Source: a virus (lineage: Duplodnaviria > Heunggongvirae > Uroviricota > Caudoviricetes). Taken from it: a stretch of 4,898 nt of DNA. The notes under the pieces are model-generated. The model saw nothing but the letters and a program-made list of their open reading frames with translations. It was not told the origin of the DNA and searched no databases. Each line of letters starts with the position of its first letter. The stretch's first letter is position 1. Position numbers and translations under genes: made by a program. This document shows, piece after piece, positions 1 through 4,697 of the stretch. The stretch is from IMG/VR virus record IMGVR_UViG_2778261453_000012; one strand, 5' to 3'.

Positions 1-584
1 GATACTGCCTCAGGTAATGCGTCCACCACCTGATTGCAGACTGCCCACCAGGATAATTCAGCCAGCGATAATTCCCGCTCCTGCGTGCCATTCATTACAT
101 GGCGTATGACGTCAATCATCCAGGCTGTCAGATTTTGTTGAGTAAGTTGCTCAAGTGATTCGGAGGTCTGGTCGCGCAGCTGGTTGTCGCAGTGCCAGCA
201 CAACACCATTGCGCCAGCACCGTAACTGTGAATAACGGTTTCGCTGTGATGATAATCGCCGTGTGGCCACTGGCAGGATTTCACGTGACGTAATAACCAG
301 TCAGACAGTGCACCAGCGCCGCCAGCTGCACGAATCACCCGCTCATCGCTGAAAAATGGCAGCAGTGATTTATCTTCCGCCAGCGGCTGGCGAACAGTAG
401 GAACCGCTCCAGATGGCAGCGCCCGCATGTTTTTCGGTTCCGGCTCCACCAGCACCCTGCCGCGATGAAAAACTGGCAATGATTCACGACCGGGCTTAAG
501 GACCACCAGCCCGAGTTCCGGAACCAGAACAGGTCGAAGTAATACCCGCACATTACCTCCAGACGCGCTGACGGTAGCAGGCAT
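1..584 (-). CDS. Hypothetical protein, N-terminal 194 aa in window (3' end beyond left edge); contains a Cys/His cluster (C104, H108, H112, H113, C129, H131, C132), possibly Zn-binding/HNH-like; possibly the continuation of the 553..825 ORF after a frameshift
   Basis: Hand translation of the minus frame with codon at 582-584 (ATG): no TAA/TAG/TGA down to position 3. Begins MPATVSASGGNVRV..., includes ...RHVKSCQWPHGDYHHSETVIHSYGAGAMVLCWHCDNQ.... The frame is open upstream to a TGA at 636-638. Weak SD (GGA) before the ATG. Absent from the ORF track because there is no in-window stop. Confidence 0.45.
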   Translation of the reverse strand, partial: MPATVSASGGNVRVLLRPVLVPELGLVVLKPGRESLPVFHRGRVLVEPEPKNMRALPSGAVPTVRQPLAEDKSLLPFFSDERVIRAAGGAGALSDWLLRHVKSCQWPHGDYHHSETVIHSYGAGAMVLCWHCDNQLRDQTSESLEQLTQQNLTAWMIDVIRHVMNGTQERELSLAELSWWAVCNQVVDALPEAV

Positions 585-825
585 GTGTCCGTGGCAGATG
601 TGCACGAACAGGAAGATATACAGAAACGGTCCAGGTCAGACGATCAGCGTTCAGACTCCGCTCCACACGGACACCGCGACGCAGATACGCCTCTTGAAGC
701 ATATCTGCCTCATCGATCGTACAGAACAGATAGTGAAACCAGCCATACTGAGGCGCACGAAAACGCCTCCCCTGCTTAATTTCCGGGTCGGCTTCAGAAT
801 TGTGGGATTTTATGTGTTGTGTCAT
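553..825 (-). CDS. Hypothetical 90-aa protein, or the N-terminal part of a frameshifted larger gene that continues in the 1..584 frame
   Basis: ATG at 823-825 preceded by GGAG with 6-nt spacing (ccGGAGaatccgATG) and by a candidate promoter. Translation MTQHIKSHNSEADPEIKQGRRFRAPQYGWFHYLFCTIDEADMLQEAYLRRGVRV... is protein-like at the N-terminus. Confidence 0.45.
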   Translation of the reverse strand: MTQHIKSHNSEADPEIKQGRRFRAPQYGWFHYLFCTIDEADMLQEAYLRRGVRVERSLNADRLTWTVSVYLPVRAHLPRTHACYRQRVWR

Positions 826-874
826 CGGATTCTCCGGTGACAGCAGGTGTCAGTTGTTCAGGCTGACTGCGCGA

Positions 875-903
875 ATTGTAAGGCAATACGCCGGAATGTA
901 CAA
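875..903 (-). promoter_or_regulatory. Candidate sigma70 promoter for the 553..825 gene: -35 TTGTAC (903..898), 17-nt spacer, -10 TACAAT (880..875)
   Basis: Read directly on the minus strand: tTTGTACattccggcgtattgcctTACAATtcgcg. The -10 is a 5/6 match to TATAAT; it sits about 50 nt upstream of the ATG at 825. Confidence 0.35.
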
Positions 904-930
904 ACAGAAAACCCGTCAGTAAGACGGGCT
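899..930 (-). terminator. Rho-independent terminator downstream of the BOF-family gene
   Basis: Minus strand: CCCGTC-ttact-GACGGG (plus 912-928) followed immediately by TTTTCTGTTTGT. A 6-bp GC-rich stem with U-tract, 19 nt after the stop at 947. Confidence 0.6.
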
Positions 931-946
931 TAACAAGCAGGGGCGG

Positions 947-1291
947 TTACTTTAATAATTTCAGTGCCTTTACATCAACTTCAACACTGCTCAGGTCTTT
1001 ATCAATTTCACCCTCAATTCTTACTTTGTCTTTCGGAGAAACATTCTGCCCGGCCCATACGCTGTCATCAATATCCGTGACAATTGTCCCGCTATTGTCA
1101 CGAAACTCATAACGTTCATCACCCACTTTTTTAACGATGCTCCCTTCAAGGATAACCCATGCATCATCCTTCAGTTCTTTTGCCTGCGCTACTGTTGAAC
1201 GCTCTGCTTCTGGCCCCTGGAAACCACCCTGCTGTGCAAAAGCGCCAAAAGACACACCGGAAATAAGTGCTGCAATCAATACCTTTTTCAT
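947..1291 (-). CDS. YgiW/YdeI (BOF, bacterial OB-fold) family periplasmic protein, 114 aa, with N-terminal signal peptide
   Basis: MKKVLIAALISGVSFGAFA|QQGGF...: typical Sec signal with AxA cleavage site, then the QGGF start characteristic of mature BOF proteins, and a C-terminal motif ...DKVRIEGEIDKDLSSVEVDVKALKLLK. SD AGAGGA 7 nt before the ATG. Confidence 0.8.
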   Translation of the reverse strand: MKKVLIAALISGVSFGAFAQQGGFQGPEAERSTVAQAKELKDDAWVILEGSIVKKVGDERYEFRDNSGTIVTDIDDSVWAGQNVSPKDKVRIEGEIDKDLSSVEVDVKALKLLK

Positions 1292-1348
1292 TCATAGTCC
1301 TCTTTCAGAGATGAACATTCAAACAGCATTTTCAGTATGGTAAAGCGC

Positions 1349-1403
1349 GGGTGCGTTGAGGATGCCTGACACATCAGAGGTGGCGGGAGATTACTCCCCC
1401 GCC
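1349..1403 (-). promoter_or_regulatory. 3' elements of the hok transcript: fbi-like box (1349-1361, CCUCAACGCACCC on the RNA) and a 3' stem-loop (1382-1403)
   Basis: The fbi-like box is complementary to the predicted mRNA 5' end GGGUGCUUGAGG (plus 1724-1735), 12 bp with one bulged C. The stem-loop GGCGGGGGAG-uaau-CUCCCGCC lies just after the hok stop and has no U-tract, so it is not a classic terminator. Confidence 0.45.
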
Positions 1404-1410
1404 TGGTCTC

Positions 1411-1566
1411 TTACTTCTCAGATTCGTAGTCTACGAAGACAGCGACCTCCGTCTGACCGGTTCGGATTCGCACCTCGCAGAGGTCTTTCCTCGTTACCAG
1501 TGCCGTCACTATGACGGTTAAACAGATGACGATCAGGGCGATTAACATCGCCTTTTGCTGCTTCAT
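1411..1566 (-). CDS. hokD: Hok/Gef family type I toxin (51 aa small membrane toxin), closest from memory to HokD/RelF
   Basis: MKQQKAMLIALIVICLTVIVTALVTRKDLCEVRIRTGQTEVAVFVDYESEK: hydrophobic TM segment followed by the conserved TRKDLCEV.IR.G..EVA.F motif of Hok proteins. SD AAGGAG about 8 nt upstream of the ATG at 1566. Confidence 0.85.
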   Translation of the reverse strand: MKQQKAMLIALIVICLTVIVTALVTRKDLCEVRIRTGQTEVAVFVDYESEK

Positions 1567-1623
1567 AGCCTGCTTCTCCTTGCCTTTCGGCACGTAAGAG
1601 GCTAACCTACATGTGTTCAGCAT
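1411..1623 (-). CDS. Mok-like leader reading frame (70 aa), in-frame N-terminal extension of hok starting 19 codons upstream
   Basis: ATG at 1621-1623 with upstream AGG (ctgAGGctcaatccATG). Extension MLNTCRLASYVPKGKEKQA precedes the hok Met. No start codon exists in the alternative frame that is open across hok. Confidence 0.4.
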   Translation of the reverse strand: MLNTCRLASYVPKGKEKQAMKQQKAMLIALIVICLTVIVTALVTRKDLCEVRIRTGQTEVAVFVDYESEK

Positions 1624-1692
1624 GGATTGAGCCTCAGATTAATGTTAAGCGTCTTGCAGGACGCGTAATGTTAACTGGGGCTTTTCTCTATC
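1615..1692 (+). ncRNA. Candidate Sok-like antisense RNA (about 70-80 nt), antisense to the hok leader and mok start
   Basis: Plus-strand candidate promoter -35 TTGCCT (1580-1585), 17-nt spacer, -10 TAACCT (1603-1608). Downstream imperfect inverted repeat 1633-1680 (outer stem CCTCAG/CTGGGG, inner GCGTC-ttgcag-GACGC, flanked by 9-bp direct repeats TAATGTTAA) followed by CTTTTCTCT. Position and length match what is expected for Sok. The -10 is weak. Confidence 0.35.
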
Positions 1693-1770
1693 TGCCGTTG
1701 GTGTTCATGCCCGAGGCAGATAGCCTCAAGCACCCGCAGCAATTCTACTTAACTATCCTTTTCCCGCAAA
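1688..1770 (-). promoter_or_regulatory. hok promoter and 5' leader: -35 TTGCGG (1769..1764), 16-nt spacer, -10 TAGAAT (1747..1742), predicted TSS near 1735, tac-like 5' box (1735..1724), leader stem with 9-bp perfect inverted repeat (1688-1696 / 1715-1723)
   Basis: Elements read directly from the sequence. The predicted transcript 5' end GGGUGCUUGAGGCUAUCUGCC resembles my memory of the R1 hok mRNA 5' end (GGCGCUUGAGGCUUUCUGCC). Confidence 0.45.
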
Positions 1771-1856
1771 CCGTTTTTATCCCCAGCGGCAAATCGAATA
1801 CACCACCAGCGCCACCGCCATCGCAATTCCTACCGTTGTGAATGCTTCAGGCCAGG

Positions 1857-2414
1857 TCATTGATTCACCTCCTGCGGCGGTTCTGGTAGCGACATCCAGT
1901 GGGTTGCTTGCCTAAGATCATTACCCGGACTAACTGCTATACCTCCGCGCCGGAACGTGCCTCCGAGATAGCGTGCGGAATATATTAATGGCCCAGCCTC
2001 GCTATCGATATTCATCGAAATAAGCACGTTCTGGCTCTTTTCAGGCATTCGCTCAGTACAGCTTATCCAGCCATCCAGAGTTATCGGAGATCTGGTTGAC
2101 GTTTCCGAGATTTCCCGAAAATTGTTGGTTGACGAATTCTTATTTTCCCGAAAGTTTCCGGCCTGAAGCATGGCGACGCGGCAGGCGTTCCAGCCATCAG
2201 CATATGTTTTAGTTACACCGTCGAGATGGCAGGTAAGCAAATCCATTTCATCAGGCACTACCATTGCTATCGGCTCTGCTTCCAGTGATGCCAGCGCGAT
2301 ACGAAACACATTAGCCAGCAGGCTGTCTGAAGACTTGTTATCGTGCGCCGAGTCGCTCAGGAAGCCTGTGATGTATGATTTAATCTCCGCGCGTTCTCTG
2401 GTAATAGTGCTCAT
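1857..2414 (-). CDS. DUF551-type prophage protein, 185 aa (variable N-terminal domain plus C-terminal DUF551-like domain)
   Basis: C-terminal region ...DGWISCTERMPEKSQNVLISMN...ATHWMSLPEPPQEV matches the W-I-S-x-x-E-R-(L/M)-P-E ... T-H-W-M-P-L-P-E-P-P signature I recall for DUF551. ATG at 2412-2414 is one nt after the stop of the upstream gene, with AAGGA inside that gene's 3' end. Confidence 0.75.
   Translation of the reverse strand: MSTITRERAEIKSYITGFLSDSAHDNKSSDSLLANVFRIALASLEAEPIAMVVPDEMDLLTCHLDGVTKTYADGWNACRVAMLQAGNFRENKNSSTNNFREISETSTRSPITLDGWISCTERMPEKSQNVLISMNIDSEAGPLIYSARYLGGTFRRGGIAVSPGNDLRQATHWMSLPEPPQEVNQ
2094..2159 (-). repeat. Imperfect tandem duplication of a 33-bp (11-codon) unit inside the DUF551-protein gene
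   Basis: ggttgacg at 2094-2101 and again at 2127-2134; tttcccgaaa at 2111-2120 and 2144-2153. Protein-level repeat NFRENKNSSTN / NFREISETSTR in the inter-domain linker. Confidence 0.55.
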
Positions 2415-2415
2415 A

Positions 2416-2634
2416 TCAGTTTTCCTTATACGGATTAATTTTATTGTGCAGTGCGCTGAATGATTCCCATGTCACATCGGTATATAGCTCAATAACTGGT
2501 TCAAATGTCCTTCCAATTATCCAGACCAGTAATAGCGGGGATATCGGTATCATCAACACTATAAACAGAATGAAAAACAGAAACTCTGTTGTTCTGCTCT
2601 TTCGTGGGTAATTTTTTTCTAAATAATGTTTCAT
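2416..2634 (-). CDS. Small hydrophobic membrane protein, 72 aa, function unknown
   Basis: MKHYLEKNYPRKSRTTEFLFFILFIVLMIPISPLLLVWIIGRTF...: basic N-terminus followed by a ~25-residue hydrophobic segment. Sits in an AT-rich islet (about 36% GC by eye) and is translationally coupled to the downstream DUF551 gene. Confidence 0.6.
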   Translation of the reverse strand: MKHYLEKNYPRKSRTTEFLFFILFIVLMIPISPLLLVWIIGRTFEPVIELYTDVTWESFSALHNKINPYKEN

Positions 2635-3603: not shown

Positions 3604-4266
3604 TCACCGCTGCTGTTCTCTGGTGGCGGTAATATCCCGGAGAATATCCCGGCACTTGTTCAGCTCCCGCAGCGCGGCGCAGACTCGCTCCCACTTCTGA
3701 ACCTGACCTTTTGCCCGGCGCAGCTCGCGGTTAGCCACATGCAGCGATGGTAAAATCAGACCATCCGGATGCTTTCTGGTGAACGACGGCTGTGACTGCA
3801 CTGTGACCGCCACACTTTCCGTTTTTATTTCTTCCTGTGTTTCCGCTTCCCCGACTGGTAACGCAACACCTGCTGGCTGAGGAAAGGCTTTACCATCCGT
3901 TTCCGTTATGGATGCGGCTTTCGGCTCTGCCGGTAAATCAGCGCCCGGTATGCAGTACCGAAATTTACCGCCCTGATTCACGCGAATCAGACGCCCTTTG
4001 CTGATTGCCATGGCCAGTGATGAATTCGCCCGGCGGGAGGTAATCCCGAACATCAGTGCCAGCTCATCCGCCGTTTGTGGGCCATGATGTTCAATCGCCT
4101 CAGTCAGCATTTGCGCTGTCACTTTCGGTACCGGTGACACTGGTTCACTTTCACCAGCCTGAATCAGCCACCACATCGAACCCTTGTTATCCGCTTCACC
4201 ACGGCGCTTCAGTTTCCACAGTTCGTTGACAGCATCTTCGCGGCTGATTCCAAGGCGCGATGCCAC
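3604..4266 (-). CDS. Hypothetical winged-helix-like DNA-binding protein, 220 aa (start uncertain: GTG 4266 overlapping the DnaC-like stop, or internal ATG near 4176 with AAGG SD)
   Basis: Segments [21 protein letters not shown] and [39 protein letters not shown] look like winged-helix motifs; the C-terminus is charged and helical-looking ([31 protein letters not shown]). Confidence 0.6.
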
Positions 4267-4697
4267 TACACGCTCATGACATCAGACACGGTGACGATAA
4301 TCACGCTGCGCCCCTTCGCCATCAGCCGGTTACCCATCGCCGCTGCAAGGTGATTTTTCCCGGTGCCGGTTTTACCGCTGAACACAAAATTCGTGCACCC
4401 GGTCATCAGTTCGTCAGCTATGGATTTGGCCTGGCTCAGCGCGTATTTTTGCCCGTCGTTCTGCACCTGATAATTCGCAAACGAGCATTTGCTGTGCAGA
4501 GGCTGGATGCCCGAACGATTCAGGATTTTTTCCACCCGCAACTGGTGATTCTGGCGGTTAATCTCCTCGCTGCGTTTTCGTCCTTCAACAAGTTGCCATT
4601 CCCGCCACTCCTCCACCGTCCGGTACGGTGGAACCGACGCCTGTGGTGCAAGTCTGCGAATACGTTCAAGAACCCCGGCTGCCGCAATGTTTTTCAT
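4266..4697 (-). CDS. DnaC-family replicative helicase loader homologue, truncated: 143 aa covering the N-terminal region and Walker A only
   Basis: ...[73 protein letters not shown] aligns to E. coli DnaC (NCSFENY...[18 protein letters not shown]...GKSVLIITVADIMSAM) as I remember it. The ORF ends with TAG where DnaC continues about 100 more residues (Walker B DLLVIDE absent). SD AGGGGG upstream. Confidence 0.75.

Follow-up and report, generated by a model that had tools for sequence, protein, structure and literature searches.

Why does a gene for a small secreted protein lie directly behind a hok toxin gene in a prophage, and from which promoter would a lysogen express it? The question is raised by a 4,898-nt stretch of DNA (the window, whose coordinates are used below unless another record is named) from a Caudoviricetes virus, IMG/VR record IMGVR_UViG_2778261453_000012, in which a gene of the BOF (YgiW-like) family follows the toxin-antitoxin (TA) locus hokW/sokW. 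An earlier interpretation of this DNA from its letters alone (the sequence-only reading) had proposed that the gene is a prophage moron with its own Shine-Dalgarno (SD) sequence and terminator, expressed perhaps by read-through from hok. We find that the hok/sok locus and the BOF gene form one mobile cassette, and that the BOF open reading frame (ORF) stands at the position where related hok loci terminate transcription. On balance, we favor the interpretation that the BOF gene is the distal cistron of the hokW unit and would give lysogens an extra measure of YgiW-like envelope-stress tolerance. The features on which the first part of the argument depends are the following:

947-1291, minus strand: BOF-family (YgiW-like) gene of 114 amino acids (aa) with an ATG start; predicted signal peptide at residues 1-19 (1291-1235), leaving a mature protein of 95 aa
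1298-1304, minus strand: SD sequence AAGAGGA of the BOF gene, 6 nt before the ATG
899-931, minus strand: intrinsic terminator, a stem-loop at 931-909 (9 pairs, 5 of them G-C) followed by a T-rich tail (U-rich in the RNA)
900-1875, minus strand: mobile cassette of a small hydrophobic ORF, hok/sok, the BOF gene and the terminator (976 bp shared, with differing flanks)

The BOF gene and the probable export of its product

The gene product belongs to the BOF family, as the sequence-only reading had claimed. In profile hidden Markov model searches the 114-aa ORF matched Pfam BOF (PF04076) over profile positions 10-102 of 103 with 115.1 bits against a cut-off of 25.8 (E=1.9e-33), scored 136.8 bits with the NCBIfam model NF033674 ('NirD/YgiW/YdeI stress tolerance', cut-off 35) and reached 112.3 bits with TIGR00156 (cut-off 108.15). 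It also matched PDB entry 1NNX, the crystallized YgiW of E. coli (E=3.5e-29). An AlphaFold2 model built with 46 homologues has a mean predicted local distance difference test (pLDDT) score of 83.8, with values of at least 94 over the barrel (residues 31-110), and contains a five-stranded oligonucleotide/oligosaccharide-binding (OB) fold barrel (strands 45-57, 60-65, 68-74, 89-98 and 103-113). A Foldseek search with this model returned 1NNX as the best match (E=1e-11, template modeling (TM) score 0.91 normalized to the target), followed by the OB folds of RPA, Ten1 and Stn1.

The gene is already annotated in public records. The region is 100% identical to prophages in many Shiga toxin-producing E. 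coli (STEC) genomes, where the RefSeq product is named 'NirD/YgiW/YdeI family stress tolerance protein', and since the region is identical and the gene annotated there, the feature is not a chance pattern. These prophages, and the position of hok (1411-1566) directly upstream on the same strand, bear out the genomic setting that the sequence-only reading had given. Its identity to Shiga toxin (Stx) phages, including 933W, VT2-Sakai and Min27, is 98.5% for the same region. The same gene (99-100% identical) is L0136 of 933W, described in that record as 'similar to hypothetical YgiW and YdeI proteins' and adjoining mokW/hokW/sokW, and ECs_1244 of the Sakai prophage Sp5 (RefSeq WP_000756596, likewise 99-100% identical). 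PHROGs places it in family 1230, annotated as function unknown. By RefSeq naming, 548 of 5426 complete E. coli genomes have one to four copies; the carriers are overwhelmingly O157, O26, O111, O103, O145 and O121 strains, mostly STEC.

Copies of the gene in diverged cassettes, whose BOF proteins are 81-82% identical at the aa level, differ by a ratio of nonsynonymous to synonymous divergence (dN/dS) of 0.16-0.23 at a dS of 0.37-0.55. Because dN/dS between these copies is about 0.2, the gene is under purifying selection; a decaying passenger gene was considered and rejected at this ratio.

Export of the protein through the Sec pathway is very probable from the sequence, with the periplasm as the predicted destination. 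By sequence rules, the N-terminus has the features of a Sec-type signal (an MKK start, a 15-residue hydrophobic core with Kyte-Doolittle values of 1.5-2.6, and a cleavage site between AFA and QQ), and the predicted mature N-terminus, QQGGFQGP, aligns with the first residues of the crystallized mature YgiW. The mature protein of 95 aa is calculated to have a mass of 10.5 kDa and an acidic isoelectric point (pI) of 4.6. In enterohemorrhagic E. coli, the protein Z1498 has a SignalP signal peptidase I (SPI) signal and was detected in culture supernatants, at reduced levels in a type II secretion system (T2SS) mutant (2026 secretome study, PMC12962677). We presume that Z1498 is the BOF gene, from the gene order counted back from Z1503 and from the SPI signal.

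A mobile cassette of hok/sok and the BOF gene

The hok/sok locus and the BOF gene travel as one cassette, which we find in three genomic contexts. Positions 900-1875 of the window align with 933W and Sakai Sp5 at 97.3-97.4% over 976 bp, with sharp boundaries and unrelated flanks. In 933W and Sp5 the cassette follows the tail genes (L0134/L0135 in 933W) at the right end of the prophage; in the window it is part of the nin region, between a DUF551 gene and a 90-aa ORF that is followed by DUF968. Diverged cassettes, again with hok directly upstream of the BOF gene, occupy another nin region (locus L011) and a chromosomal site outside any prophage, flanked by a cytochrome-c peroxidase gene and mrp/metG (loci L007-L010). 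The 548 genomes with the gene and the 550 with contiguous hok and BOF gene are essentially one set. Between cassette variants, hok is conserved at 94-95% and the BOF gene at 85-88%, and the 57-nt spacer from the fold-back inhibition (fbi) element of the hok mRNA to the BOF ATG is the least conserved part (65-79%).

The sequence-only reading had assigned the status of moron to the BOF gene alone. The term holds, but for the whole hok/sok and BOF cassette: this is a discrete insert found at varied positions, with a distinct base composition (G+C of 43.5-46.5% over the BOF gene and 52-59% in the flanks), and it is as a whole that the cassette has its own promoter, terminator and lysogen expression (hok start at 1735, terminator at 931-909).

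Linkage of this kind could also mean that the BOF protein serves the TA module, by buffering the periplasmic C-terminal domain of Hok or by aiding Hok-assisted lysis at phage release, or that the cistron alters 3' processing of the hok mRNA. The association with hok is strict over the three genomic contexts and a dS of about 0.5, the BOF ORF stands where the terminator of hok would be, and small peptides can be ligands of BOF proteins, SipA being an example (PMC6370654). In addition, the study in which deletion of hokW-sokW halved Sp5 release swapped the locus for a kanamycin cassette directly ahead of the BOF gene and did not address a polar effect on that gene (PMC8621323). However, the linkage may simply reflect one ancestral cassette moving as a unit, and most hok loci function without a BOF gene (4712 genomes have a hok match and 548 have the gene). 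No Hok homologue was found within the 2.5-kb flanks of BOF homologues in species-representative genomes of other genera, and the periplasmic tail of Hok, as read from its sequence, is not cationic. We regard a role of the BOF gene in the service of the toxin as improbable.

Several further observations concern the cassette variants. The synonymous divergence of hok between them is 0.06-0.07, against 0.37-0.55 for the adjoining BOF gene, which fits either strong RNA-structure constraint on the hok mRNA or recent recombination or homogenization of the hok part. In the chromosomal cassette L007 (positions 3728-3883 of that locus), Hok has a Cys-to-Gly change in its periplasmic DLCEV motif and a Leu-to-Ile change in its membrane helix, and the BOF gene is intact; the toxin may be decaying there while the BOF gene is kept. 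The shared cassette of the window also includes a 27-aa hydrophobic ORF (1777-1860, minus strand; MTWPEAFTTVGIAMAVALVVYSICRWG) that has a strong SD sequence, GGAGG, and a start overlapping the end of the DUF551 gene. This ORF is present in 933W with amino-acid changes; in L007 and L011 its position is taken by another hydrophobic ORF, of 34 aa.

Elsewhere in the prophage, a DnaC/IstB-like ORF (4266-4697, minus strand, 143 aa) stops shortly past its Walker A motif and abuts the start of a DUF1627 ORF (3604-4266, minus strand). This abutment has the look of a junction left by deletion or fusion within the replication region, because of which the prophage is probably defective.

Transcription of the BOF gene

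The BOF ORF lies between fbi and the sole intrinsic terminator of the hokW unit, where related hok loci terminate. The parts of the upstream locus from which this follows, and the two published starts assigned to the BOF gene, are listed here:

1742-1770, minus strand: hok promoter as read from the sequence (-35 TTTGCG at 1770-1765, 17-nt spacer, -10 TAGAAT at 1747-1742)
1561-1735, minus strand: 5' leader of the hokW mRNA, with tac, the sok target and the mok start (Rfam RF01794, 113.5 bits, gathering score 59)
1615-1685, plus strand: sokW antisense RNA, mapped from the 933W annotation (58664..58734)
1411-1623, minus strand: mokW (1411-1623) and hokW (1411-1566) in the same frame (Pfam HOK_GEF, PF01848, E=4.3e-23; annotated as mokW/hokW in 933W)
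1382-1403, minus strand: terminal hairpin of the truncated (active) hok mRNA, GGCGGGGGAG-UAAU-CUCCCGCC, at mRNA positions 333-354
1349-1361, minus strand: fbi element, CCUCAACGCACCC, which pairs with the 5' end, GGGUGCUUGAGG, in the minimum free energy fold of 1735-1345
1423 and 1409, minus strand: two conditional transcription starts assigned to the BOF gene (EDL933 positions 1901860 and 1901874), seen in stationary lysogeny broth (LB) and stationary acid only, two of eight conditions (PMC10469882)

The upstream locus has the components of a type I TA system: a Hok peptide, an overlapping mok, an antisense sok RNA, and pairing of the 5' tac with the 3' fbi, the end-pairing that defines hok mRNAs (PMC9841398). 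The tac element, sok target, mok/hok, terminal hairpin and fbi stand at positions matching those of R1 hok/sok and of hokD; the terminal hairpin has its counterpart at mRNA positions 337-354 of R1-type hok, and in R1 it is needed for the stability of the truncated mRNA (PMC9841398). The hok promoter is kept in all four cassette variants, and fbi is invariant both in these and in hokD. Function of hokW-sokW was shown by Takada et al., who also found hokW mRNA in uninduced Sp5 lysogens (PMC8621323).

Between hok and the BOF gene the sequence-only reading had described a gap of 118 nt with no convincing promoter. The gap measures 119 nt (1292-1410), and about half of it is not spacer, its first ~62 nt being the 3' untranslated region (UTR) of the hok mRNA with the terminal hairpin and fbi. 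As for the promoter, that reading stood: a consensus scan of the minus strand in the gap found no sigma-70-like site in the window, L007 or L011, the candidates seen by eye were weak (TTTACC-16-TTGAAT, 8/12, and TACCAT), and no PhoP- or PmrA-box-like repeats were seen in the gap by eye. The signals claimed at the two ends of the gene are also in place. The strong SD sequence AAGAGGA stands at 1304-1298, and AAGAGGAC at this site is kept in the diverged variants L007 and L011. The dedicated terminator (931-909) is the sole hairpin of its type on either strand of 700-2000, and both L007, where the stem has compensated changes, and L011 have an equivalent terminator after the BOF gene. Local folding found no significant structure in the leader (z = -0.56) or the 3' end of the BOF gene (z = -0.86), and an Rfam search at a permissive threshold returned the sok model, two chance snoRNA matches and nothing further.

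Relatives lacking the BOF gene are built differently beyond fbi. The R1-type locus has a canonical terminator hairpin right after fbi, at mRNA positions 400-425, which hokW does not have. In E. coli BL21, the hokD locus matches hokW at 94% identity as far as window position 1339, just past fbi; after the homology ends, hokD continues with a terminator (AACCCGCTTCGGCGGGTT and TTTGTTTTTA) and then a promoter-like TTGAAG-18-TAGAAT ahead of rem, both absent from the hokW cassette. By consensus scan, the coding strand from hok to the BOF gene is free of terminator-like sites in all three diverged variants. Since the BOF gene lies inside the hok unit where relatives terminate, lysogens probably express it from the hok promoter. 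In the BL21 locus (L015, 1899-2298) rem takes the slot of the BOF gene, but behind the terminator and promoter-like site, and it seems that accessory genes recurrently occupy this site behind prophage hok loci.

Read-through from hok, which the sequence-only reading had offered as one possibility, is favored both by this comparison of terminators and by published transcription start sites (TSSs). The prophage locus at 1.90 Mb of EDL933 is 99.96% identical to window 83-2483, and window positions equal 1903283 minus the record coordinate. The Cappable-seq data of EDL933 (Zehentner et al. 2023, PMC10469882) place the hok start at 1901548, window position 1735, in all eight conditions, all of them uninduced. 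This is exactly the predicted 5' end of the hok mRNA, 7 nt after the -10 TAGAAT. The hok start is replicated in the 933W copy of EDL933 at 1392267, and the sokW start at 1392147 (933W position 58664) is likewise present in eight of eight conditions (PMC10469882). No TSS falls between fbi and the BOF ATG, the BOF-specific starts at 1423 and 1409 appear in two of the eight conditions, and the 933W copy has no start specific to the BOF gene (PMC10469882).

Expression values give a further indication. Z1498, the sole gene listed between Z1495 and Z1500 and presumed to be the BOF gene, has a value of 207 in LB compared with 12-59 for its neighbors, 457 at 15 °C and 0 in feces (Landstorfer et al., PMC4048457). 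The Sakai RIBO-seq and EDL933 translatome supplements have no entry for the BOF gene. If Z1498 is the BOF gene, its transcription in exponential LB, with no TSS of its own there and no terminator upstream, indicates read-through from the hok promoter. Taking these lines together, we infer with moderate confidence that the BOF gene is co-transcribed with hok.

The stationary-phase starts suggest another explanation, in which a stationary-phase (sigma-S-like) or activator-dependent promoter within the 3' end of hok drives the BOF gene as an independent stress gene, transcripts of hok stop near fbi, and hok is a mere neighbor. Both starts are restricted to stationary LB and stationary acid; a -10-like TAGACT at 1433-1428, read from the sequence, is invariant in the BOF-linked hok variants and is replaced by ACAGCT in the BOF-less hokD; and the host paralogues of the BOF gene are stress-regulated. 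The same starts are, however, missing in six of the eight conditions and altogether for the 933W copy, and Z1498, if it is the BOF gene, is well transcribed in exponential LB. Moreover, no terminator parts hok from the BOF gene in any variant, whereas the BOF-less relatives have one, and no part of the cassette is less conserved than the 57-nt spacer from fbi to the ATG, which argues against a conserved regulator site within this spacer. We consider independent transcription of this kind fairly unlikely.

Several points weigh against co-transcription and the role built on it. Published work to date describes no RNA that runs from hok into the BOF gene. On 6% gels, Takada et al. saw a discrete 'full-length hokW mRNA' and smaller species, for which their text states no sizes (PMC8621323), and a discrete mRNA would fit a 3' end near fbi, formed by termination or processing. 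Our scans for terminators and promoters were simple consensus scans, which Rho-dependent termination or an activator-dependent promoter could escape. Because EDL933 has at least two copies that are ~97% identical, the assignment of reads is perhaps partly ambiguous. The identity of Z1498 with the BOF gene is presumed from gene order and the reported SPI signal, and no functional study or phenotype of the phage-borne gene was found in the papers searched. What is new here is modest: an operon anatomy in which a BOF cistron replaces the hok terminator, and the match between this anatomy and published TSSs.

The Cappable-seq data set (PMC10469882) also places other 5' ends in and around the unit. 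A second end on the hok strand, at 1901659 (window 1624), occurs in all eight conditions and in both EDL933 copies, 1 nt before the mok ATG; no obvious -10 was found for it. It could mark a leaderless mok/hok transcript from which tac and the greater part of the sok target are missing, or a product of processing that came through the enrichment. On the plus strand, an antisense start at window position ~1305 (EDL933 1391837) lies 14 nt upstream of the BOF ATG and is present in seven of eight conditions in the 933W copy, with a -10-like CATAGT at 1293-1298 nearby. RNA from this start would cross fbi, the hairpin of the hok 3' UTR and possibly hok, and could affect end-pairing or read-through.

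Within the BOF coding region, minus-strand starts at 1034-1036 (EDL933 1902247/1902249) are seen in most conditions, downstream of a promoter-like TTGATG (1071-1066)-17-CAGAAT (1048-1043). The RNA of ~130 nt from 1036 to ~905 is a candidate 3'-end-derived small RNA, with an ordinary fold (z = -0.86). Just past the BOF terminator, a promoter-like TGTACA-16-TACAAT (875-902, minus strand) matches a start at window 868 (EDL933 1902415) in eight of eight conditions; because of this match, the next gene (825-553, PHROG 1212, annotated as unknown function) has its own constitutive promoter in lysogens.

Possible roles and known relatives

If the BOF gene is the distal cistron of the hokW unit, lysogens would express it mainly by read-through from the constitutive hok promoter, on an RNA of ~830 nt that starts at 1735 and ends near 905. 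Weak internal starts at 1423 and 1409 would add transcripts in stationary phase, upstream phage transcription would add more after induction, and translation would proceed from the gene's own SD sequence. In the periplasm, the protein would act in the manner of YgiW, YdeI and SipA, as a small, acidic, chaperone-like protein associated with outer-membrane porins, a group of which one member binds cationic antimicrobial peptides. An extra, constitutive, acidic paralogue could raise the tolerance of STEC lysogens to envelope, oxidative and metal stress and serve as a fitness (lysogenic-conversion) factor.

The background for such a role lies in the family. SipA, YgiW and YdeI are periplasmic, interact with OmpA, OmpF and OmpD, respectively, and protect against H2O2, Cd and cationic peptides; SipA binds polymyxin-type (cationic antimicrobial) peptides directly, and ygiW and sipA cross-complement sensitivity to H2O2 and Cd (PMC6370654). 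The acidic mature phage protein (pI 4.6) would fit binding of cationic ligands. Drawn from family knowledge only, a stress-tolerance role of the phage protein seems to us evenly poised between true and false, and lysogenic conversion by the BOF gene is what we hypothesize.

Contact with outer-membrane proteins could also serve superinfection exclusion or receptor masking, with the protein acting from the periplasmic side to hamper competing phages in adsorption or DNA entry. Exclusion is a frequent function of the prophage morons that lysogens express. Family members do interact with OmpF, OmpD and OmpA (PMC6370654), but PADLOC defense models gave no match, PHROG 1230 is annotated 'unknown function', and there is no experimental hint of such an activity. 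We judge exclusion very improbable. A bolder proposal makes the BOF cistron a selected, built-in component of the hokW TA module: with the terminator replaced, the translationally silent, stable hok mRNA would carry a constitutive periplasmic protein, and the longer 3' end, the protein or both, possibly together with the antisense start, would modulate Hok activation. This appears distinctly unlikely.

About one in ten complete E. coli genomes, nearly all of them Shiga toxin producers, carries the BOF gene, in up to four copies. Should its product raise tolerance to gut antimicrobial peptides, acid or oxidants, the gene would be a genuine lysogenic-conversion factor of Stx phages. Should the gene be part of the hokW operon, deletions of hokW-sokW made with a resistance cassette may be polar on ECs_1244, and toxin phenotypes would perhaps be due in part to the BOF gene. 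An Irish case-control genome-wide association study of 2025 associated the accessory gene 'ygiW_2' and the mokC-like 'group_5720' with hemolytic uremic syndrome, with an adjusted odds ratio of 5.5 for both together (PMC11950266); we infer that this pair is the hok/BOF cassette, perhaps as a mere marker of 933W-type Stx2a phages.

The comparison with the host genes ygiW and ydeI, proposed by the sequence-only reading, separates the phage gene from both. YgiW of E. coli (1NNX) shares its family and fold with the phage protein, is 47% identical to it over the mature domain, and has in common with it a GGF(Q/S)GP motif at the mature N-terminus and an N-terminal signal peptide, which in the phage protein is predicted. 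The phage protein differs in being ~16 residues shorter, with one GGFxGP motif and without the linker of ~16 residues that YgiW and YdeI have after their signal peptides. Its gene lies in the prophage hok cassette, whereas ygiW of the host adjoins qseB (qseBC), so the phage gene shows neither the high identity nor the qseBC position of a YgiW orthologue. It does not score as a YdeI orthologue either: the protein is 31-37% identical to YdeI (OmdA) of E. coli K-12 and reached 64.8 bits with the YdeI equivalog model NF007471, below its cut-off of 179. By these sequence comparisons, the phage gene is a distinct third paralogue beside the host YgiW and YdeI, not a copied host gene; a recent capture of ygiW from the host was rejected because of the 47% identity. 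YdeI (OmdA) of E. coli and Salmonella and SipA of Vibrio cholerae are likewise small BOF proteins of the periplasm, the location predicted here.

The nearest relatives outside the cassette are plasmid and chromosomal genes of Pantoea (62%) and a gene of the Salmonella virulence plasmid (49-53%). A search of species-representative genomes returned chromosomal ygiW-like genes alone (Rahnella, Ewingella and others), at 44-51% identity, and tblastn found BOF matches in 1118 plasmid records, mostly below 60% identity. Plasmid BOF genes, such as the one adjoining pefB on the Salmonella virulence plasmid and NcrY of nickel-resistance plasmids, are mobile-element cargo like the phage gene, and they show that BOF genes are common cargo of such elements; unlike the phage gene, they have other neighbors and no linkage to hok.

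Among phage genes, the known lambdoid morons bor and lom are parallels in kind. Both are envelope-associated accessory genes of lambdoid prophages and dispensable for phage growth. They occur together in 933W, and their protein families differ from BOF. Unlike them, the BOF gene appears to borrow the promoter of a toxin-antitoxin locus.

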